Source of the DNA: Bacilli bacterium
GTDB lineage: Bacteria; Bacillota_I; Bacilli_A; RF39; UBA660
Reading direction: 5' to 3'
Length of the DNA: 41,334 nucleotides
NCBI GenBank assembly: GCA_022798795.1
Contig: JAAWNF010000004.1
Coordinates: 1-41,334, forward strand
Part shown: positions 7,612-41,334 of the stretch, piece after piece
Numbering within the stretch: position 1 is the stretch's first letter
How the letters are laid out: the number at the start of each line of letters is the position of its first letter
Made by a program: the position numbers and the translations under genes
Notes under the pieces: generated by a model
What the model was told of the DNA's origin: nothing
Databases searched by the model: none
Seen by the model: only the letters and a program-made list of their open reading frames with translations

Positions 7612-7627
7612 TGTTCCACGTGAAACA
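7612..7627. promoter_or_regulatory. parS: parS site 1
   Basis: TGTTCCACGTGAAACA, a perfect match to TGTTNCACGTGAAACA. Confidence 0.95.
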
Positions 7628-7646
7628 TTTTATTTTTCCACTTCGA

Positions 7647-7662
7647 TGTTTCACGTGGAACA
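7647..7662. promoter_or_regulatory. parS: parS site 2
   Basis: TGTTTCACGTGGAACA, the reverse complement of site 1. Confidence 0.95.
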
Positions 7663-7691
7663 TTCTTTCTTATTCTGTTATCGACCCTATA

Positions 7692-7707
7692 TGTTTCACG
7701 TGGAACA
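7692..7707. promoter_or_regulatory. parS: parS site 3
   Basis: TGTTTCACGTGGAACA. Confidence 0.95.
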
Positions 7708-13366: not shown

Positions 13367-13394
13367 AAAAATAAGCCTTAAAAGACTTATTTTA
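13367..13394 (-). terminator. Terminator after comK, followed by an extended -10 (TGATATAAT) for recF
   Basis: Minus strand AAAATAAGTC-ttttaa-GGCTTATTTT-TT. Confidence 0.7.
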
Positions 13395-13841
13395 TGCAAG
13401 TTTTCTTTTTCTAAGAATGGATTCTAATCTTGTTGCTCTTAAAATCTGATTTTCTAATGAACCATATGAAATTTCTAGTTCTAAAGAATTGCCATTTTTG
13501 AAGTAAATAAAAGTTGCACAATCTTTTTTTGTATAATCTTCAATATGATTTAAAGAAATCCAAATGCATTCTTTTATTCTTGGTGATGTTGTTGGAAAAA
13601 AGATTAATTCCATTGTTTCTTCTACTATAATTGGCGATTTATAATTTACTCCAATTAAGTTTTTTGTCCCCTCATGTCTTCCCATATAAGAACTTCCAAA
13701 AAATTTACAACTTTCATCAATAATCTGTGTAGATGATTGATTGACTAAAAAGCTATCTTCCAGTTCGATAATTTTTGATGTTGTTTGGTCTACTGGAACA
13801 ATTGCTACTGTGGCAGAATTAATTTCATAATTCTGTTTCAT
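13392..13841 (-). CDS. comK: Competence transcription factor ComK family protein
   Basis: YEINSAT...IIDESCKFFGSSYMGRHEGTK...KSPII...IFFPTTSP...CIWISLNHI is the ComK signature. RBS AGGAGGG. Confidence 0.9.
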   Translation of the reverse strand: MKQNYEINSATVAIVPVDQTTSKIIELEDSFLVNQSSTQIIDESCKFFGSSYMGRHEGTKNLIGVNYKSPIIVEETMELIFFPTTSPRIKECIWISLNHIEDYTKKDCATFIYFKNGNSLELEISYGSLENQILRATRLESILRKRKLA

Positions 13842-16659: not shown

Positions 16660-16945
16660 TATTTTTATGGGAAATAAAAGCAAAAATCTAAAAAAGTGTG
16701 GAAAAAAAGCGAGTTTTTAAATTCCACAACTTTTTCCCCTATTTTTTCTATTGAAAACCAATTATTTCCCAACTTATACACAGTACCTGTGGAAAACTCT
16801 TACACATAATATTTCCCAAGTGGATTAATTATTCACAATTATGTGGAAAAACAAACTTTAAATAGGAATTTTAGAAGAGTGAGTTGTTGAAAAATATGTT
16901 AATTATGAAAAAATCTTGGGAAATAATTGAAAAATATCCACCATA
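16660..16945. promoter_or_regulatory. oriC: oriC upstream DnaA-box cluster / dnaA promoter region
   Basis: TTATACACA 16774-16782, TTATTCACA 16829-16837, TGTGGAAAA at 16697, 16788 and 16842, and AATTCCACA ~16720. Confidence 0.85.
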
Positions 16946-16995: not shown

Positions 16996-17601
16996 ATGGA
17001 ACGAAAATTAGATGATATAGAACTAGAAGAATTTGTACATTTTCATATAGACCAAACAACTTTAATTGTTAGAACGAATTCAGAAACAATATCTTATTCA
17101 TATCCAAATTCGTTAGAGTTATTAAGAAGAATAGGGTATTTATTACATCGTTATGAAGTAGAATACAATAGAAAAGAGGAACAAACAAAAGCAGTATCTA
17201 AAGTTCCTTTAACTCCAATTCAAAAAGAATGTCAAAAGCGATTATTGATAGGTCGTAATATTGTTTTTGGAACATATTTTGTTTATATACTACTAACTAT
17301 GTTATTTCCCAATATAACTCCCTTTTTATTTAATATATTTTTGGTAATTGATGGAGCAGCATTAATAACTGGAATAAAGAATGCAAGTATAATAAGAAGT
17401 GAGGCATTAAAGCAGGAAGAAACGAAACAAAATAATCAATCACAATTAGAAAAAGGTTTTGAGTCACTAAAAGAAACTGCACTTTCTTATTTAAATAAAA
17501 TAATGAAAGATAATACAAAATTTACTGTGGAGGAAAAACATTACATAGAAGTAATAGAAAAAGGATTTCAAAAAAGAATTGGTACTTATCCACAACAATA
17601 G
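16996..17601 (+). CDS. Hypothetical membrane protein (two TM helices flanked by charged regions)
   Basis: 201-aa ORF with its own promoter and a GGTGA RBS. Hydrophobic stretches IVFGTYFVYILLTMLF and FLFNIFLVIDGAALITGI. No family recognised. Confidence 0.75.
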   Translation: MERKLDDIELEEFVHFHIDQTTLIVRTNSETISYSYPNSLELLRRIGYLLHRYEVEYNRKEEQTKAVSKVPLTPIQKECQKRLLIGRNIVFGTYFVYILLTMLFPNITPFLFNIFLVIDGAALITGIKNASIIRSEALKQEETKQNNQSQLEKGFESLKETALSYLNKIMKDNTKFTVEEKHYIEVIEKGFQKRIGTYPQQ

Positions 17602-24389: not shown

Positions 24390-24432
24390 TTTGGGAAATG
24401 ATATTGAAATATTTCCCAAAGTATAGTATTAT
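24390..24432 (+). promoter_or_regulatory. noc promoter straddled by a perfect 10-bp inverted repeat
   Basis: TTTGGGAAAT (24390-24399)-11nt-ATTTCCCAAA (24411-24420); -35 TTGAAA 24404-24409, 17 nt, -10 TATTAT 24427-24432. Confidence 0.7.
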
Positions 24433-24460
24433 AGTATATAGAATAAAAAGGAGGATGACT

Positions 24461-25975
24461 ATGGATAATAGAAAAATTGTCGAGCTAGACTTAAATGATA
24501 TATTGCCAAATAGATTTCAGCCAAGAATTAAGTTTAATGAAGATTCTATTACAGAACTAGCTGAGTCAATTAAAGAACATGGTGTCATTCAACCTATTGT
24601 TGTAAGACCTTTAGGGGATAGATATGAAATTATAGCTGGAGAAAGACGTTATAAAGCAAGTGTATTAGCTGGAAAAGAAACAATTCCAGCAATTGTAACT
24701 GAGTTAAATGATAAAGATAGTGCAGAAGTAGCGCTTATAGAGAATGTACAACGTCAAGATTTAACTCCAATAGAAGAAGCAATTTCATATAATAAAATTC
24801 TTGATATGGGATATTTAACACAGGAAGAATTGGCATTTAAATTAGGAAAAACTCAATCAACAATTGCAAATAAATTACGGTTATTAAAACTAGATGATGA
24901 AGTTCAAGAAGCTTTATTAGAATCCAAGATTTCAGAAAGACATGCAAGGTCTTTATTGAAATTGACAGATAAGAGTAAACAAAAGCAAATGTTAGCAAAA
25001 ATAATAAATGAAAGATTAACTGTAAGAAAAACAGATGAGGAGATAAGTAAAATGATGAATGAAAATGATAATAGAAATATAGAGATAATTGATTTCGGAA
25101 ATCAAAATAATAATACAGTACCTATGAATCAAGGTATGAATTATAATATTCCAACAACACCAATTGTAGAAGATGTGGTACCAACTATGCCACAAACACC
25201 AGTACAGGAAGCACCAGTTATAAATCCAGGCTTTATGAATGTAGAACAAATAGAAAAGACTGCACAAGATATTAATGTAGTTCCACCAGTAGCGAATATG
25301 GATGCATTATTAACTCCAGCTGATATGCTAAATACAGTACCAACTCCATCAACTAATGTTAATTTGGAAAATCCATTTGGAGTATCAATGGAGACAACGG
25401 AAGCAGAAGATGGTTCAGCAGAAGCAATGTTAAAACCTGGTAAATTTTTTAACTTATCCGATTTGGAAAACCCTGTTATGGAACAAAAACAGCCTGTTGT
25501 AGAAACACCAGTTGAGCAAGCGAATCCAATTTTAACAAATCCAACAGTAGGAATTCAATCAACAATAGAATCAGTTCCTATGAATCCATCAATGGAACAA
25601 TCGTCTATAGAGAAACCGATAGAAGTTGTAAATAATTTTGTAACAAATTTTGATAATACTATGACTGAAAAACCAACTCCAATTATTCCTGCTAATCCAG
25701 AGCCACTTATTCAAACCCCAATAATGGAGCCAATGAGTAATCAAACAATTGCGGTTCCTAATTATAATGAATTAGAATCAACAATGTATGGTCCAGTAAG
25801 TCCAATAACTCCATCGGTTCCTGAAATGCCAGTAGGACAGAATAATATGAAACAAGTAATTGATATTATTAGAGAGTGTTCTTCTAAAATAGAAGCCTTG
25901 GGATTTGAGATAGAAACTGAAGAATATGATTTTGAAGATATGTATCAAGCAATCTTTAAGATAAATAAGAAATAG
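24461..25975 (+). CDS. noc: ParB-family protein of the Noc (nucleoid occlusion) type with a long low-complexity insertion
   Basis: ParB CTPase motifs PNRFQPR, GERRYKA and ENVQR; HTH LGKTQSTIANKLRLLKL...ISERHAR (Noc-type); Noc-like C-terminus IETEEYDFEDMYQAIFKI. Follows rsmG. ATG 24461 after AGGAGG. Confidence 0.85.
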   Translation: MDNRKIVELDLNDILPNRFQPRIKFNEDSITELAESIKEHGVIQPIVVRPLGDRYEIIAGERRYKASVLAGKETIPAIVTELNDKDSAEVALIENVQRQDLTPIEEAISYNKILDMGYLTQEELAFKLGKTQSTIANKLRLLKLDDEVQEALLESKISERHARSLLKLTDKSKQKQMLAKIINERLTVRKTDEEISKMMNENDNRNIEIIDFGNQNNNTVPMNQGMNYNIPTTPIVEDVVPTMPQTPVQEAPVINPGFMNVEQIEKTAQDINVVPPVANMDALLTPADMLNTVPTPSTNVNLENPFGVSMETTEAEDGSAEAMLKPGKFFNLSDLENPVMEQKQPVVETPVEQANPILTNPTVGIQSTIESVPMNPSMEQSSIEKPIEVVNNFVTNFDNTMTEKPTPIIPANPEPLIQTPIMEPMSNQTIAVPNYNELESTMYGPVSPITPSVPEMPVGQNNMKQVIDIIRECSSKIEALGFEIETEEYDFEDMYQAIFKINKK

Positions 25976-25995
25976 CACTTAAATAGTGCTTTTTT
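25974..25995 (+). terminator. Terminator after noc
   Basis: AGCACT-taaat-AGTGCT-TTTTT. Confidence 0.75.
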
Positions 25996-26048: not shown

Positions 26049-29000
26049 ATGTTAACATATGAACAATTTATGAATCTTGTTCCAAAAGAAACAGCTACTT
26101 TTGTATCAAAAGTATTACCTTATTTGGATGGATATTTGAGAGACGATGTAAAACTTCGATTTAAAGGTGATTATCAATCTGACCATAAAGATAGTAAAAC
26201 TAATTATTTACTACTATATTGTCTTTCAGACAGAAAAGAATATGCTACTTTTTTAAAAAGGTATGGATTTGATATAGAAAAATATAAAATAAACACAGAT
26301 TGGGTAAATTTAAATGTAAATAGTGAATTACTTTTCGAAAAATTTAGCCAAGTTTTTAATATTTATGATGACCAAACATTATATGCTAGTTTGACACCAT
26401 TGGATATTGTACAGAAAGCATTCAAACAATGTATTTCAAATTGTGGAAGTTACATTTTTGACTATTTATTTCCACATATAAGTTTAAATACTTTTTTAGA
26501 AGAATTAGAAAAATTAAGGCAAGCTGAAAAGATAGAAAATGAGCATCAACTGGAACAAGAAACCTATGGAGAACTTTCAATTTCTGTTATTTCTTATTTA
26601 GAGACTGCTTCAAAAATAAGAACGTTATTATATTCTATTTTGAGAAAGGATCATGAATTAATAAAATTAAATGATGAGGATATTGTACCGATATCATTAT
26701 TATTGGCTTTATATTATTATAAAGATATGCCTTTAAGAGAGGAAGAAATACCAGAGCAGAAACTTCTTCAAACTATGTTACAGGAAAAAGGTGTAAATTT
26801 AGATAAAATTACAAATGCAATTGGACAAAGTTTTTATGTAAATACAGTAAGAGATACAATAAAAAATGTAGATGCAATTAGATTACTATATTCAAAATAT
26901 TATTATAGTGGAGTGAATGAGAAAGTAGAAGAGGCGGAAATTACAGTATCAAAGATATTCAGTAACTTATTTGATCGTAATTTTACAAATAGTTATGCAA
27001 TAGAAAAATTATTTGCAAAATTAAATTGTTATGTAGGTGTTTTTTTGCCATTGGAAGAAAAAGTAGAAAAATTAAGGGATTCAGAAGAGCGAATAAATTC
27101 TTTATCTTATGTGAAAAATTTTTATGCAGAGCTTTCAAAAGAATCTAGAGATTTTATCGAGTTTACGACAAAGACTTATTTATTATTGTTAGAAAAAATG
27201 AAAGAAAAGACACATAATGAAGAAATATTGGTAGATGAAGATGATGCTGATACATTAGCTTTGTTTATTGCATCTTATTATTATAAATTAGATGTTAGTG
27301 AGTTCTTTGAGGACTATGGTATATCTTTAGAGAGCGTTTTAGAACTTTTAAATTTAAAAATAGCGAAAGAAGAAATAGACGCAATGAAACTAAATCAAAA
27401 AGTTTTGGTTGACCGTTATAAGAGATTCGTATATGAAGGAGTAAACAGAAATAAGTCGGCTAAAACTATACGTATTACTGATATTGCACATAACCTTTGT
27501 AATAGAGAGTTTAATCGTAGTATGATTATGGAGAATATTTTCTTTGAGCTGGCGAAATCTACCGATTTACAAAGTGACTTTTTAGAGCAATTAAGAATAC
27601 ATTTAGAAAAAAAAGAACAAAAAAGAAAGATGGATTTGACACAACGCTTATTTAAAGATATGCCAGTAAGTACTATGGAATATTTAGAAAACGCATCAAT
27701 TATACATCAATTTCTTCTTGGACATATAAAACAATATAGTGAAATGGATATACAAGTTTTATCTCTTTTACTTTCTGCAATTATTTCTACAAAATCAGAT
27801 ATTGCTAACTTTCTAAATTCAAAAAATTTAACGTTGAATGGTGTTTGTAACTTTTTAAGTGTATCACCAAACTATTTAATGAAAGGAACTATTAATATTG
27901 ATATTTTAGCAGAGCAATATGGAATGTTTATTTTCGGAGGTTGTAACAAAGACTTAGGAAGAAAAGATATAACTATATTTAATATAATAAGAAATATTTT
28001 TTCAAAAGATGTTTATAATAGTGTTTTAATTAGTAAATTTCTAGGAAATTTTGGATTATCTTATGAAGACTTTGAAAATCTGGAAGAGAAATTTGCGACT
28101 TATTTAGAGGAAACAGAAGAAGACAAAAAGATAGAAGAAGCAAAAGGAATATTAAATAGTTTTAGAGAAAAAGCAAAACAATATATCATAAATGTTATGC
28201 GTATTCATCAAAGATTGGTGAGAGTTGCCTATCAAGATGAATCAGTAGCACGTTTGATTCCAAATATAACAGATGTAAGAGAACTATCGCTTTTATTAGG
28301 AATGTTTACAATTGAAAATGATGTTCAATATTTTTTCGAAAAGAATAAGGTTACACTTGAACATATATGTTCATTAATTGGATTGGATACAGATATCATA
28401 AAAGGATTAGAAGGAGAAGAAATTAATTACAAATTGATTTTAGAAACTTATAGGCCTTGGATTCAATATGGAAGTTCAAACTATAATAGAACGGTATCAG
28501 ATTTGATTTCTAGGATTTTTGATAAGTCAATTGGAAAGGAGAGCTTAATTCTTGAAGAAATTGTATCTTTTGTTGGTTCTAACTATGATATTTTAAAAGA
28601 AGAGGTAGAATCTAAGAAAGACCATGAAGTCTCATTATCAATAGATGATAGAATTAAACTATTGTCTGAGGAAAGTATTGATGTATTAGATTTGACAGAT
28701 GTAAAAAGTATTTTGCATTTTGGAAATTCATTATCTATTCACTCAAAGTATATTCATGATGAATTGCCAAGACTAATGATGAGTGATGCTCATGATAAAT
28801 CAGTAGAAGCAATTCGTCATATTGTAGATAAAATATATACAGGAGTGCCAGTAGAAAAAAAAAAACGTTCCTTGTTTGAACGTATATTTGGTGTTATGGT
28901 AGAAGAAGAACCCAAGTTAGTATTAAACCCAGATGCAATTCAGGAACTGAAAGAGGCAATAGATTCTAATATAGAATCATTGTCAAAAGAATTATTAGGT

Positions 29001-29672
29001 TATGATGCAATTCGTAGGTATATTGAAGCATATCGTAAAAAAAATCGTTCTCATTTACTTGTAGCAATATCTGAAACAGAAAAAGTAGAGGAAGAAGTGA
29101 AAGGACTAGCTCCAGATAAGGAAGAAGAGTATGCAGCCTTTTTATTAGCTACATCTAGATTACAGATTATGAGAGATAAGACAAATCGTTTTAGTACTTC
29201 GAATCATTTAATGAAACAGGAATTGTTGAAAGTAAATCAAGCAATAGTAAATCATTTTATTACAATAAATGCATTAGAAATGGCAAAAGATGATTTGCTT
29301 CCTTTAATAGGAGCTGAACTTGCTCTTACACAAGGAAGAAATACTGAGAATAAAAGCTTAGATTTATCTGAAAATGTAATAGGACTATTTCAATCATTAT
29401 TATCTAGAAATGTAGCAGGAGCAGTTGAAAATATGGAAAAGTTAAAACAATCTAGTTTATCTGCAGATACTTTTGCTTTATTGAATAGAGATATTGAAGT
29501 TTATTTAAAAGGCTTGAATCAAGTAGCTCAGTTAGAGGGAAAAGTAGAATCTTTAGATATTGACCAAGTTGTAATTACTTCTGATTATAAACCAAAATTA
29601 GTATTAACTGGACAAGAAGATTCTATTGACCAGAAGAATAAGCAAATGGTTTTGGAATATCCAAAAGAGTAA
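26049..29672 (+). CDS. 1207-aa protein: five ~170-185-aa Clp-N(Clp R)-like helical repeats plus a C-terminal TelA/KlaA (toxic anion resistance)-like domain
   Basis: Repeats start near aa 7, 173, 359, 535 and 702. The C-terminal region LDLTDVKSILHFG...KKKRSLFERIFG...LLPLIGAEL...LLSRN resembles TelA. RBS AGGGGG. The ORF itself is solid; the domain calls are by eye. Confidence 0.65.
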   Translation: MLTYEQFMNLVPKETATFVSKVLPYLDGYLRDDVKLRFKGDYQSDHKDSKTNYLLLYCLSDRKEYATFLKRYGFDIEKYKINTDWVNLNVNSELLFEKFSQVFNIYDDQTLYASLTPLDIVQKAFKQCISNCGSYIFDYLFPHISLNTFLEELEKLRQAEKIENEHQLEQETYGELSISVISYLETASKIRTLLYSILRKDHELIKLNDEDIVPISLLLALYYYKDMPLREEEIPEQKLLQTMLQEKGVNLDKITNAIGQSFYVNTVRDTIKNVDAIRLLYSKYYYSGVNEKVEEAEITVSKIFSNLFDRNFTNSYAIEKLFAKLNCYVGVFLPLEEKVEKLRDSEERINSLSYVKNFYAELSKESRDFIEFTTKTYLLLLEKMKEKTHNEEILVDEDDADTLALFIASYYYKLDVSEFFEDYGISLESVLELLNLKIAKEEIDAMKLNQKVLVDRYKRFVYEGVNRNKSAKTIRITDIAHNLCNREFNRSMIMENIFFELAKSTDLQSDFLEQLRIHLEKKEQKRKMDLTQRLFKDMPVSTMEYLENASIIHQFLLGHIKQYSEMDIQVLSLLLSAIISTKSDIANFLNSKNLTLNGVCNFLSVSPNYLMKGTINIDILAEQYGMFIFGGCNKDLGRKDITIFNIIRNIFSKDVYNSVLISKFLGNFGLSYEDFENLEEKFATYLEETEEDKKIEEAKGILNSFREKAKQYIINVMRIHQRLVRVAYQDESVARLIPNITDVRELSLLLGMFTIENDVQYFFEKNKVTLEHICSLIGLDTDIIKGLEGEEINYKLILETYRPWIQYGSSNYNRTVSDLISRIFDKSIGKESLILEEIVSFVGSNYDILKEEVESKKDHEVSLSIDDRIKLLSEESIDVLDLTDVKSILHFGNSLSIHSKYIHDELPRLMMSDAHDKSVEAIRHIVDKIYTGVPVEKKKRSLFERIFGVMVEEEPKLVLNPDAIQELKEAIDSNIESLSKELLGYDAIRRYIEAYRKKNRSHLLVAISETEKVEEEVKGLAPDKEEEYAAFLLATSRLQIMRDKTNRFSTSNHLMKQELLKVNQAIVNHFITINALEMAKDDLLPLIGAELALTQGRNTENKSLDLSENVIGLFQSLLSRNVAGAVENMEKLKQSSLSADTFALLNRDIEVYLKGLNQVAQLEGKVESLDIDQVVITSDYKPKLVLTGQEDSIDQKNKQMVLEYPKE

Positions 29673-38590: not shown

Positions 38591-38688
38591 TTGACATTGT
38601 ATCCGTTTGGTAATATAATATACTAAATTGTAACCATATGGTTTCCAAAAACCTATTTTTTGCTCTTTTGTGTAACTAAGTGGTGACA
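38591..38688 (+). promoter_or_regulatory. Consensus sigmaA promoter with three imperfect palindromic operators (TGTAACC-N4-GGTTACA)
   Basis: TTGACA 38591-38596 -17nt- TATAAT 38614-38619; sites at 38598-38615, 38629-38646 and 38671-38688. Confidence 0.75.
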
Positions 38689-38715
38689 ATAGTAGAAAGG
38701 ATAAGGAGTTTTAGT

Positions 38716-41334
38716 ATGATGTGTGGTAGAAAAAAAGGGTTCACTTTGATTGAACTACTAGCAGTAATCATAATCATTGGAGTTATCGCATTGATAGTTA
38801 CACCAATTGTAATTGATGTCATCAAAAAACAGGAGAAAAAAACTTTTCAAGAGAGTGTTCACGGAATTATGGAATCAATTAGAATTGATACAGCCGATGA
38901 TAATTTTTCGCTTCCTAGAGAATACTATTATAAAGATGGGACTTTAACTTTAGAACAAGTTGGAAATGGAAATCGTGATGACCTTCCAACGACAGTAAAG
39001 GTAAATGGACGTTATAGTGGTGAAGGAAGATTTATTGTTGATGAAGATGGTGACATTCTTGTAGTGAATGCATGTAATGGAAATTATTGTATCAACAATT
39101 CAAAGGATAATAACGAGCTTGTGCTTGAACCAGATGATGGTACGCATAATCCAGTTAGAGATCCAGAAGATCCAGTAATTACATTAATCGATAGCAAAGT
39201 AATGATGATAGGGTTGGGTTCTACGTTTACTGATCCAGGAGTTAAATCAGAAACGAGAGCAGGAGATGCATTAACATATACAACTGTAATAAAACGTGGC
39301 AATACAGTTGTAGAAAGTGTAGAAACAGGAGCAGTAGCAACGTATACAATTACATATACAAATGAAAGTAATGGTAAAAAGGCGACTGTAACAAGAACAG
39401 TAAAAGTAGTAGAAATGAAGCCACAAATTACAATTACAAAAGCAGATAGTAGCTATGTAAGAAGTAAAACTGTAGTAATAAAAGTAGCAGCAGTTTCACC
39501 AAACAAGGTAACAGGCTTTACTTATCAAATTGATGGACAAGACCCAATACAAGTAAGTGGAAATGAAAAAACAATAACATTAAACACTACGGGAATTTTT
39601 AGTATTGTGGTAAGAGCAACAGATGATAATGGTCATAGTGATAGTATCACTGGAGGACCATATAGAATAGATGCAACAGGACCAGAATTAACAATTGACC
39701 CTGAAATTGTGACATTAGATTCTGCAACAGCAGGAAGTTATAATATATTTACAGGAGTAACAGCAGTAGATAATGTAGATGGAACAATAGATAATAGTAA
39801 AATTATTACAGGTGGGGACACATTGTTATCAATTCCGGGCACATATCGAGTTACTTATATTGTAAAAGATAGATTAGGAAACGAAACTATTGGTATAAGA
39901 ACATTTGTGGTAAGTGATTCAACAAAACCAGTAATAACAATAGCACCAGAGGAAACAACAAGACATGTAAAATCGCAAAGTGTAAAAATAACAGCAACAG
40001 ATAACAATAGAGTGGATAGTATAACTTATGTTATTATAAAAGATGGAGTAAGAGGAACAACAAATCCAATTAATAATGGAGGTTCAGTCTTATTAAATTC
40101 TACAGGAAATTATCAAATAGAAGTATCAGCAACAGATGATAGTGGAAATACAGAAGTAAAAACAAGTAAAACATATATGATAGATACAACAGAGCCACAA
40201 CTTGTATTTGATAATGTAACATTAGCAGTAGATGAAGTTGTTGGTTATAATTTAATGACAGGAGTAACAGCAACAGATAATAGTGGAGTGACGCCAACAA
40301 TTACATATACAGGTGGTTTAAGTGCAACAGTGGGAACACAAACAATAACATATAAAGCAACAGATGAGGCAGGAAATGTAGGAACAAGAACAAGAACATT
40401 TACGATAACAGCAGCAACAGCCCCAATTATAAGTTTCTCACCAATTCAAACAACAGGATGGGTAAAATCAGTAAATATAACAATAAGTGCGACTGTAAAA
40501 CAGGGAGAAAACTTAAGTGCATTTACATATAGTATAAATAGTGGAGCAGCTCAAAGTGGAACAAGAAATGAAAACACAGGAACAGCAAATGTGACACTAA
40601 ATACAACAGGAACCTATACAATAAGTGCAACAGCAACAGGAGGATATGGAAATTCTAAAACTGAAGGCAGTGGGACTTATTATATAGACGCAACAGTTCC
40701 AACAGTGGGAGCAATAGGTGGAAATACAGATAGTTGGACAACAAGTAAGACTTTAACAGCAACGCTTTCTGATTCACATAGTGGTGTAGTAGCATATGCA
40801 TGGACAACAAGTAGTGCAACGCCAACAAGTTGGACATCAGTAACAAATACAAGTAGTTATGCATTTAGTAAGAGTGTAACAGCAAATGGAACATATTACT
40901 TATGGGCAAAAGATGCAGCAGGAAATATATCTGCAGCAAAAAGTGTTACAGTAAGTAAGATAGATACAACAACACCAAGTATAACAAGTAGCTATACAAG
41001 TACAGCTTATTCAGTAAATGAGAAAACAAGTGTAGCAGTAAGTACATTATATAGTGCAACATTCGGAGGAATGGGAGGAAGTGTTACATGTAAGAATGGA
41101 ACTACAACAATAACAAATCTAAATTCATTGGCAGTGGGGACATATACATTAACATGTACAGCAACAGGAGGAAATGGAAAGACAGCAAGTATAAAACCTA
41201 AAGTAACGATTAAGTCAGCAGGAACAAGTGGAAGTGATTTAGCAAATCAAGATAATTTACCTGACTTAGCAAATCTAAAAAGATATAGAGGAGCAAATCC
41301 GAATAACTGGGTATGCTTTGGTTCATCAAGTATA
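38716..41334 (+). CDS. Giant type IV prepilin-like surface protein with tandem Ig-like repeats (partial, runs off the window)
   Basis: RBS AAGGAG; MMCGRKKG|FTLIELLAVIIIIGVIALIVTP class III signal; open for 873 codons. Thr-rich repeats such as DxTxPxIT...GVTAxDNxDG...GTYxxTYxxxDxxGN. Absent from the ORF track because there is no stop codon in the window. Confidence 0.92.
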   Translation, partial: MMCGRKKGFTLIELLAVIIIIGVIALIVTPIVIDVIKKQEKKTFQESVHGIMESIRIDTADDNFSLPREYYYKDGTLTLEQVGNGNRDDLPTTVKVNGRYSGEGRFIVDEDGDILVVNACNGNYCINNSKDNNELVLEPDDGTHNPVRDPEDPVITLIDSKVMMIGLGSTFTDPGVKSETRAGDALTYTTVIKRGNTVVESVETGAVATYTITYTNESNGKKATVTRTVKVVEMKPQITITKADSSYVRSKTVVIKVAAVSPNKVTGFTYQIDGQDPIQVSGNEKTITLNTTGIFSIVVRATDDNGHSDSITGGPYRIDATGPELTIDPEIVTLDSATAGSYNIFTGVTAVDNVDGTIDNSKIITGGDTLLSIPGTYRVTYIVKDRLGNETIGIRTFVVSDSTKPVITIAPEETTRHVKSQSVKITATDNNRVDSITYVIIKDGVRGTTNPINNGGSVLLNSTGNYQIEVSATDDSGNTEVKTSKTYMIDTTEPQLVFDNVTLAVDEVVGYNLMTGVTATDNSGVTPTITYTGGLSATVGTQTITYKATDEAGNVGTRTRTFTITAATAPIISFSPIQTTGWVKSVNITISATVKQGENLSAFTYSINSGAAQSGTRNENTGTANVTLNTTGTYTISATATGGYGNSKTEGSGTYYIDATVPTVGAIGGNTDSWTTSKTLTATLSDSHSGVVAYAWTTSSATPTSWTSVTNTSSYAFSKSVTANGTYYLWAKDAAGNISAAKSVTVSKIDTTTPSITSSYTSTAYSVNEKTSVAVSTLYSATFGGMGGSVTCKNGTTTITNLNSLAVGTYTLTCTATGGNGKTASIKPKVTIKSAGTSGSDLANQDNLPDLANLKRYRGANPNNWVCFGSSSI

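Follow-up and report, generated by a model that had tools for sequence, protein, structure and literature searches.

We analysed a window of 41,334 nucleotides, meaning the whole stretch of DNA under study (contig JAAWNF010000004.1 of assembly GCA_022798795.1), from a Bacilli bacterium of the GTDB lineage RF39; UBA660, and in particular its gene at 24461..25975, which encodes a 504-residue protein of the ParB/Noc type. The source genome comprises 1.36 Mb at 29% GC, is distributed over 91 contigs and is 97.7% complete. Both the list of open reading frames (ORFs) and the sequence give the order mnmE-mnmG-rsmG-noc, with the gene in the slot that noc occupies after mnmG and rsmG; rsmG also lies upstream of the long-form gene in 72 of 80 related loci. 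In its textbook form, Noc pulls DNA to the membrane via an N-terminal helix switched by cytidine triphosphate (CTP). The protein described here shares with Noc of B. subtilis and G. thermoleovorans (TIGR04285; structures 7nfu, 7ng0, 7ol9 and 6y93) the ParB N domain, the CTP motifs, a helix-turn-helix (HTH) domain with the specificity residues Q-K-K-R, the Noc-type C-terminal domain and the gene position after rsmG. However, it lacks the amphipathic N-terminal membrane peptide of the canonical form and carries an acidic linker of 254 residues where the canonical linker is short, the sampled canonical proteins measuring 249-310 residues in total. Coordinates of the features are collected in Table 1.

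Table 1. Features of the noc locus and of the origin region in the window.
Feature	Position	Strand	Basis or remark
noc-type gene, 504 aa + stop	24461..25975	+	ORF translation; TIGR04285 292.7 bits
Inverted half-site GGGAAAT	24393..24399	+	10 nt 5' of TATTTCCC, 11 nt before its ATTTCCC core
Promoter-like TTGAAA-17-TATTAT	24404..24432	+	10/12 matches; consensus kept in related loci
NBS half-site TATTTCCC in the -35/-10 spacer, putative operator	24410..24417	+	Sequence; ATTTCCC in 73/74 loci
Shine-Dalgarno AGGAGG, 6 nt 5' of ATG 24461	24449..24454	+	Sequence; counterpart in 75/76 related loci
ParB N-terminal (CTP-binding) domain, aa 5-97	24473..24751	+	Pfam ParB_N
HTH DNA-binding domain, aa 99-199	24755..25057	+	Pfam HTH_ParB; Q132, K138, K143, R160
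Acidic disordered linker, aa 207-460 (254 aa)	25079..25840	+	AlphaFold2, composition, conservation
Motif NIEIIDF, aa 207-213	25079..25099	+	Conservation in relatives
Motif YNIPTTPIVED, aa 228-238	25142..25174	+	Conservation in relatives
Motif INPGFMNVEQIEKTAQDI, aa 254-271, predicted short helix	25220..25273	+	Conservation; AlphaFold2
Motif LKPGKFFNL, aa 324-332, after acidic run	25430..25456	+	F329 and F330 97% conserved
Noc-type C-terminal dimerisation domain, aa 461-504	25841..25972	+	AlphaFold2; profile matches
Terminator-like hairpin, then T run	25974..25990	+	Sequence
Three parS sites, gyrA-tadA gap	7612..7707	.	35-45 bp apart, start to start; site of mixed parS/NBS arrays in relatives
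Four NBS half-sites among DnaA boxes upstream of dnaA	16669-, 16763+, 16810+, 16918- (16669..16925)	-, +, +, -	Conserved in 4 close relatives

The absence of the N-terminal helix depends on the choice of start codon. The open frame extends from an alternative ATG at 24398 and comprises 525 codons, including the ATG at 24461. A start at 24398, which would add 21 residues, is not preceded by a Shine-Dalgarno sequence, lies 5' of the promoter-like site and is not conserved as coding sequence. The start was surveyed in 76 related loci recognised by the motif LPNRFQPR: 75 have a Shine-Dalgarno-preceded start 11-19 codons ahead of this motif, none of the 76 has one 25 codons or more upstream, and an in-frame stop occurs within 30 codons upstream in 63. 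In one locus (L007), a stop codon falls inside the counterpart of the stretch 24398-24461. The lack of a conserved, Shine-Dalgarno-preceded upstream start, the stops and the downstream promoter together exclude the start at 24398, and with it any N-terminal helix. The start at 24461 given by the initial annotation, and the helix-less N-terminus that it had read from it, were thus upheld. The protein begins four residues ahead of the ParB N domain. Among up to 8000 database candidates, the best 120 relatives measure 404-667 residues and all contain both Pfam domains; 118 of them have at most 20 residues before the N-terminal motif, another has 27 and the last escaped the pattern used, and 118 end with the conserved C-terminal domain, the other two being truncated.

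An AlphaFold2 model built with 70 relatives (mean predicted local distance difference test score, pLDDT, 68) comprises a folded part at residues 1-206, a disordered one at 207-460 and a C-terminal domain of about 45 residues, where a helix (462-479) and two strands reach a pLDDT of 85-95. No variation was seen among the 70 relatives in the CTP motifs GERR and ENxQR or at Q132, K138 and R160. In an excerpt of Jalal 2020 (PMC7383237), recognition of the Noc-binding site (NBS) is ascribed to Q173 for adenine 1 and to R201 for cytosine 6, and a single lysine at 179 or 184 suffices for NBS specificity. The residues of this Q173/K179/K184/R201 rule are present here as Q132, K138, K143 and R160, in agreement with the Q-K-K-R pattern noted initially. 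Lysine at the third of these positions is confined to the ten closest proteins, 99 of the 113 others having asparagine. Over the first 200 residues, identity to the Noc proteins of B. subtilis and G. thermoleovorans is 51-55%. By sequence, the best solved relatives are Noc structures (7ng0/7nfu, 217 bits; 7ol9, 191), followed by Spo0J (1vz0, 180; 6sdk, 171). A Foldseek search with the AlphaFold2 model likewise ranked Noc structures first, and its HTH domain fitted Noc-NBS 6y93 with an rmsd of 1.4-2.0 Å and a TM-score of 0.88-0.92. The NCBIfam Noc model TIGR04285 matches in two stretches because the long linker splits the match. The Noc-like character of the C-terminus, also proposed initially, was borne out by a profile of the family's C-terminal domain, which, at E <= 0.03, recognised the C-terminus of 17 Noc-type proteins out of 20 but of no Spo0J protein out of 21.

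The alternative that the gene encodes a second, parS-binding Spo0J/ParB instead of a Noc could draw on the fact that, near its origin, the source genome has no ParB-type palindromes other than the three parS sites. We consider it extremely improbable. Like Spo0J of the Firmicutes ParABS system, the protein has the ParB fold and CTP motifs, and its relatives have clustered, origin-proximal loading sites. However, its specificity residues are Q-K-K-R and not R-x-x-G, its C-terminal domain is of the Noc type, it falls outside the Spo0J clade and no parA is adjacent. The 504-residue protein has neither the LGxGL ParA-contact peptide nor the parS-type residues R173 and G201, with Q and R in their place. 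Moreover, the same genome encodes an ordinary soj-spo0J pair (261 and 291 residues) on another contig (C85), and this Spo0J has both the peptide (LGRGL) and the R..G specificity residues.

The distribution of the long form was examined in a class sample of 300 genomes of the same class, 34 of which belong to the GTDB family of the source genome (hereafter f1) and represent 27 genera besides its own. All 34 encode both a long form (open frames of 351-611 residues) and Spo0J, so the insert is a family-wide trait and not unique to this assembly. Noc-type proteins of the other families measure 252-310 residues, with three exceptions of 372-681. The related loci come from metagenome-assembled genomes of uncultured gut or rumen 'Bacilli', 'Tenericutes' or 'Mollicutes', one relative being filed under Mycoplasmatota incertae sedis. 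In a maximum-likelihood tree from a rapid search, built on the first 200 residues of 67 sequences, the 26 long forms constitute one clade (Shimodaira-Hasegawa-like approximate likelihood ratio test, SH-aLRT, 100) outside the Spo0J clade, in which the 21 Spo0J proteins are grouped with the same support of 100. The long forms group weakly (SH-aLRT 53) with helix-less short Nocs.

Using tblastn, we collected from the class sample 20 short Noc-type proteins (249-362 residues). Seven begin with a hydrophobic motif (MFNIFSR, MNIFK, MGIFFSN, MNIFSG, MGLFDFLG, MALFNRK), and 13 begin directly at the domain, as the long forms do. Because these 13 also lack it, loss of the N-terminal helix is wider than the long-linker family. 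An excerpt of Jalal 2021 (PMC8429893) describes helix alpha1 as held in the apo-Noc structure and helix alpha2 as conserved among Noc homologs. No published account of an anchor-less, long-linker Noc design, or of either feature, was found in the literature searched. The separate clade and its presence across the family support the proposal, made initially, of a distinct Noc subclass and not an assembly artefact; as a hallmark of that subclass, the missing helix did not hold, being shared with the 13 short Nocs. Two Noc-type proteins of another family show a further layout: one of 632 residues (L128, G084) has an N-terminal hydrophobic motif and about 360 residues beyond the Noc C-terminal domain, and another measures 362 residues (L129, G058).

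The long acidic insert, first recognised from its low complexity, is predicted to be disordered: its pLDDT is 35-55 except in a short helix at 261-267. It is composed of P (14%), N (11%), V (10%), E (9%) and T (9%), and contains 6 basic and 32 acidic residues (net charge -26). Median identity of the relatives to the 504-residue protein is 79% in the N-terminal half, 56% in the C-terminal domain and 28% in the linker, whose length varies from 163 to 415 residues. At least six short motifs are nevertheless conserved within it, and among the 70 relatives conservation reaches 60% or more at 38 positions of the linker alignment, which keep their order. The two islands singled out by the initial annotation turned out to be the best-kept parts of the linker (NPGF 74-91% and KFFN 81-97% in 70 non-redundant relatives). 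Further islands are NIEIIDF, YNIPTxPIVED, KPxAxxDxLLxP, NFxxNFD and VPxY, and the order is fixed: NIEIIDF, YNIPTxPIIED, NPGFMDVxKIExxAxDI, KPxAxxDxLLxP, an acidic run with LxPGKFFNL, NFNFDxxF and VPxY. By eye, the YNIPTxPIIED-type motif is apparently repeated in some longer relatives.

Comparison with four close relatives gave ratios of non-synonymous to synonymous substitution rates (dN/dS) of 0.24-0.38 for the linker and, wherever dS could be estimated, of 0.03-0.065 for the folded domains; saturation of dS in the C-terminal domain left one comparison without an estimate. The difference holds also inside the subclade without full NBS described below. Low identity, variable length and a dN/dS far above that of the folded domains are what a functionless low-complexity expansion in a decaying gene would produce. 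This explanation is nonetheless very improbable: the frame is open in all 34 sampled f1 genomes, the order of the conserved columns is preserved, the dN/dS of the linker remains under 1 and the flanking domains are strongly constrained.

The conserved linker motifs also invite the idea that classical nucleoid occlusion persists, with the membrane anchor moved from the N-terminus into the linker, where the acidic run and L-x-P-G-K-F-F-N-L would still tether DNA to the membrane. The motif resembles the N-termini of canonical Noc proteins of the same class (MGIFFSN, MNIFSG, MFNIFSR, MGLFDFLG) and its two phenylalanines are among the most conserved residues of the linker. A division-site safeguard would also be useful to the cell, as the source genome has FtsZ, five transpeptidase-domain genes for a cell wall and no MinD match over the cut-off. 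On the other hand, the motif lies within a strongly acidic tether, is not among its most amphipathic windows and is not predicted to be helical by AlphaFold2. In addition, occlusion needs a chromosome-wide pattern of NBS, whereas the sites are few, close to the origin where mapped in relatives and absent from the source genome. A relocated anchor is therefore, in our judgement, unlikely.

The noc promoter contains an NBS half-site exactly within its -35/-10 spacer. Its core ATTTCCC recurs in the promoter region of nearly all usable related loci (73/74), 42 of which have two or more copies, spaced 21-23 bp apart in 38 of 50 intervals. The density of ATTTCCC is 11.1 per kb at the promoter vs 0.098 per kb in the rest of these loci (113-fold). 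The arrangement GGGAAAT-N(0-20)-ATTTCCC occurs once in the source genome, at 24393-24399 with the noc promoter half-site. By comparison, short canonical noc genes abut rsmG and have no promoter half-site (20/20 loci). Genome-wide, the half-site is not enriched (60 observed vs 60 expected), and it is distinctive solely by its placement in this promoter and by its clustering at oriC. We propose that noc would be transcribed from its own promoter and would repress it via the half-site in the spacer.

A separate observation concerns four related loci (L019, L021, L045 and L063), where an NBS-like palindrome, ATTTCCYAGGAAAT, lies about 120-190 nt 5' of the noc start, in the last rsmG codons. By our own reading, these codons encode roughly K-F-P-R-K-Y and use CCC/CCT and AGG. 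Such codons are expected to be rare at this GC content; their use would suggest selection for the site inside the rsmG coding sequence.

Full sites were searched with the NBS and parS consensus sequences. The source genome has no NBS palindrome at up to 1 mismatch, and no other GC-containing 14- or 16-mer palindrome is enriched in it. Its only parS sites at up to 2 mismatches are the three within the 226 bp that separate gyrA from a tadA-like gene. Elsewhere in the family, full NBS (up to 1 mismatch) were found in 55 of 61 f1 genomes, usually 1-7 each, against 0-1 for a reversed-pattern control, and in all 34 f1 genomes of the class sample. In the latter, NBS presence tracks the Noc-bearing families; families with only one ParB-type match per genome have NBS in 2/10 (f2), 0/8 (f3) and 2/17 (f15) genomes.

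Five f1 genomes with large contigs allowed the sites to be mapped. All 24 of their parS and 14 of their 16 NBS fall in one gyrA/tadA/dnaX zone, situated across oriC from noc at a distance of about 17 kb; the remaining two NBS are about 1.9 kb off, inside dnaX. NBS and parS are interleaved in four of the five genomes; the remaining one has its parS run bordered by a single NBS. Of the 61 f1 genomes, 16 contain exact NBS and parS sequences as pairs separated by 15-76 bp, for which the control gave 0. One f1 genome (G334) stands apart in number, with 23 NBS on contigs C1, C53 and C68, far above the 1-7 of the others; those on C1 form a tandem array with a period of about 79 bp.

The source genome (G000) belongs to a subclade with its congener G339 (apparently the same assembly as G359), G360, G361 and G362, none of which has a full NBS at up to 1 mismatch. 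The gyrA-tadA gap of these genomes contains parS only, the compact array being kept in the four close relatives. Upstream of dnaA, four copies of the half-site, T(A/T)ATTTCCCAA, lie among the DnaA boxes, the outer two inverted relative to the inner two. No second cluster of four half-sites exists in the genome, the number expected by chance being 2.3e-5. We considered these half-sites as a trait of the whole family and rejected this, few or none being found upstream of dnaA in G001-G005. Neither the promoter half-site, nor the mixed parS/NBS arrays of relatives, nor the loss of full NBS in the subclade figured in the initial annotation, and all three are new here.

These sites recall KorB of plasmid RK2, reportedly a ParB-family CTP clamp that represses promoters (bioRxiv 10.1101/2024.02.16.579611). 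KorB (8qa8/8qa9) resembles the present protein as a member of the ParB family with promoter operator sites (Foldseek match to 8qa9, E 1.5e-11). It differs in that identity is about 30%, KorB operators are palindromic and those found here are single or directly repeated half-sites, and no KorA-like partner is known for the 504-residue protein. In the subclade, the protein could be mainly a regulator of this kind: it would do no more than repress its own promoter at a specific site and modulate dnaA expression or the firing of oriC, and the linker would be just a flexible spacer with which a dimer reaches separated half-sites. The half-site exactly within the promoter spacer, the four half-sites interleaved with DnaA boxes and kept in four close relatives, the lack of full NBS in the genome and the strong purifying selection on the DNA-binding domain are consistent with it, and a precedent is Noc of S. 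aureus, which reportedly controls replication initiation (PMC5540599). However, such a role leaves unexplained both the six or more linker motifs of fixed order and the mixed arrays in the rest of f1, and the oriC half-sites are not general in the family; we regard it as possible, though rather doubtful.

We favour, with a probability of about 0.6, the reading that the protein is a variant Noc orthologue acting as a CTP clamp on the origin region and as an autoregulator, with a linker that recruits partners, in a family of uncultured gut Bacilli with small genomes. Because it retains the N-terminal ParB domain, the recognition helix of NBS type and the dimer domain typical of Noc at the C-terminus, the protein most likely still acts as a CTP-gated DNA clamp. 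In most of f1, the protein would load at a few full NBS palindromes in an origin-proximal array, beside the parS of Spo0J where mapped, and this placement would point to action on the origin region and not chromosome-wide. In the source genome and its closest relatives, with full NBS lost, the likely targets would be the half-sites of the noc promoter and the four of oriC, and the length of the linker would allow a dimer to place its two DNA-binding domains on half-sites that lie apart. The linker motifs would recruit one or several partners, or the membrane. As suggested initially, the tether may also enlarge the lumen of the clamp or form condensates, and its internal motifs may contact the membrane or a partner.

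Several observations weigh against this reading. The TIGR04285 score of 292.7 bits lies under the curated cut-off of 315. Distant f1 members keep long linkers with only degenerate motifs. The promoter half-site is missing in the three distant f1 genomes inspected (G299, G069 and G159), the region upstream of dnaA is free of half-sites in G002 and G003, with a few scattered ones there in G001, G004 and G005, another factor could recognise TATTTCCCAAA, and binding of ParB-family proteins to isolated or directly repeated half-sites is putative. NBS counts are likewise modest (0-20) in the sampled genomes with short canonical Noc, so that few sites alone do not distinguish f1. No partner was found: the related loci have no conserved neighbour as a candidate, the usual downstream gene being uvrB, and no other protein of the genome carries the linker motifs, apart from one chance GKFFNL.

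The mixed arrays admit a more specific, and rather unlikely, elaboration, a two-ParB centromere in which Spo0J and an anchor-less Noc load side by side near oriC and the tether of the latter recruits division or replication factors. Such an assembly might, quite tentatively, be an origin-anchored safeguard standing in for the missing Min system, or a brake on DnaA. Equally speculative is a relocation of the Noc sites in the subclade, out of the centromere array and into oriC, where they would persist as half-sites between DnaA boxes. If true, this would amount to a direct Noc-oriC control circuit.

Origin-loaded proteins linked to division control or to the envelope have counterparts. MipZ-ParB of Caulobacter is an origin-anchored system with ParB as platform, and RicO of S. 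aureus is said to be an origin-membrane anchor (bioRxiv 10.64898/2026.03.06.710092); either offers a possible analogy alone, as no sequence relationship is expected and the function is putative here. The interest of f1 lies in a Noc in which clamp and DNA specificity are preserved, the helix has been lost and a long acidic tether with conserved docking-type motifs has been gained. Loss of the helix together with gain of the tether would mean that membrane contact is made differently, or that Noc has another job in these bacteria, and the Noc sites beside parS in relatives, with the half-sites among DnaA boxes in the subclade, point to an origin-centred role. Such a role could bear on the unexplained connection of Noc to the initiation of replication that is reported for S. 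aureus (PMC5540599). The family also provides a natural system for studying the influence of linker length on clamp geometry in ParB-type proteins.

A few further genes deserve mention. The ORF directly after noc (26049-29672) encodes 1207 residues without a Pfam match. This gene order is found in just 5 of 80 related loci, so the ORF seems to belong to an insertion that separates noc from uvrB. A second ParA-like gene of the genome (L088, contig C73) was considered as a partner of the Noc-type protein and rejected. The ORFs around it resemble, by our reading, a Tad/Flp pilus locus, with a CpaF-like ATPase, a TadZ-like ParA and small TadE-like proteins, which explains the second MinD/ParA-like match of the genome. 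Near the origin, a 201-residue ORF (16996-17601) without a Pfam match adjoins oriC upstream of rnpA, and a ComK-family gene (13392-13841) sits between recF and dnaN, a place that it also occupies in three other f1 genomes (L159-L161). Finally, a large ORF at the end of the window (38680-41334, 3' end open) encodes a pilin-type N-terminal methylation motif and bacterial Ig-like surface domains.

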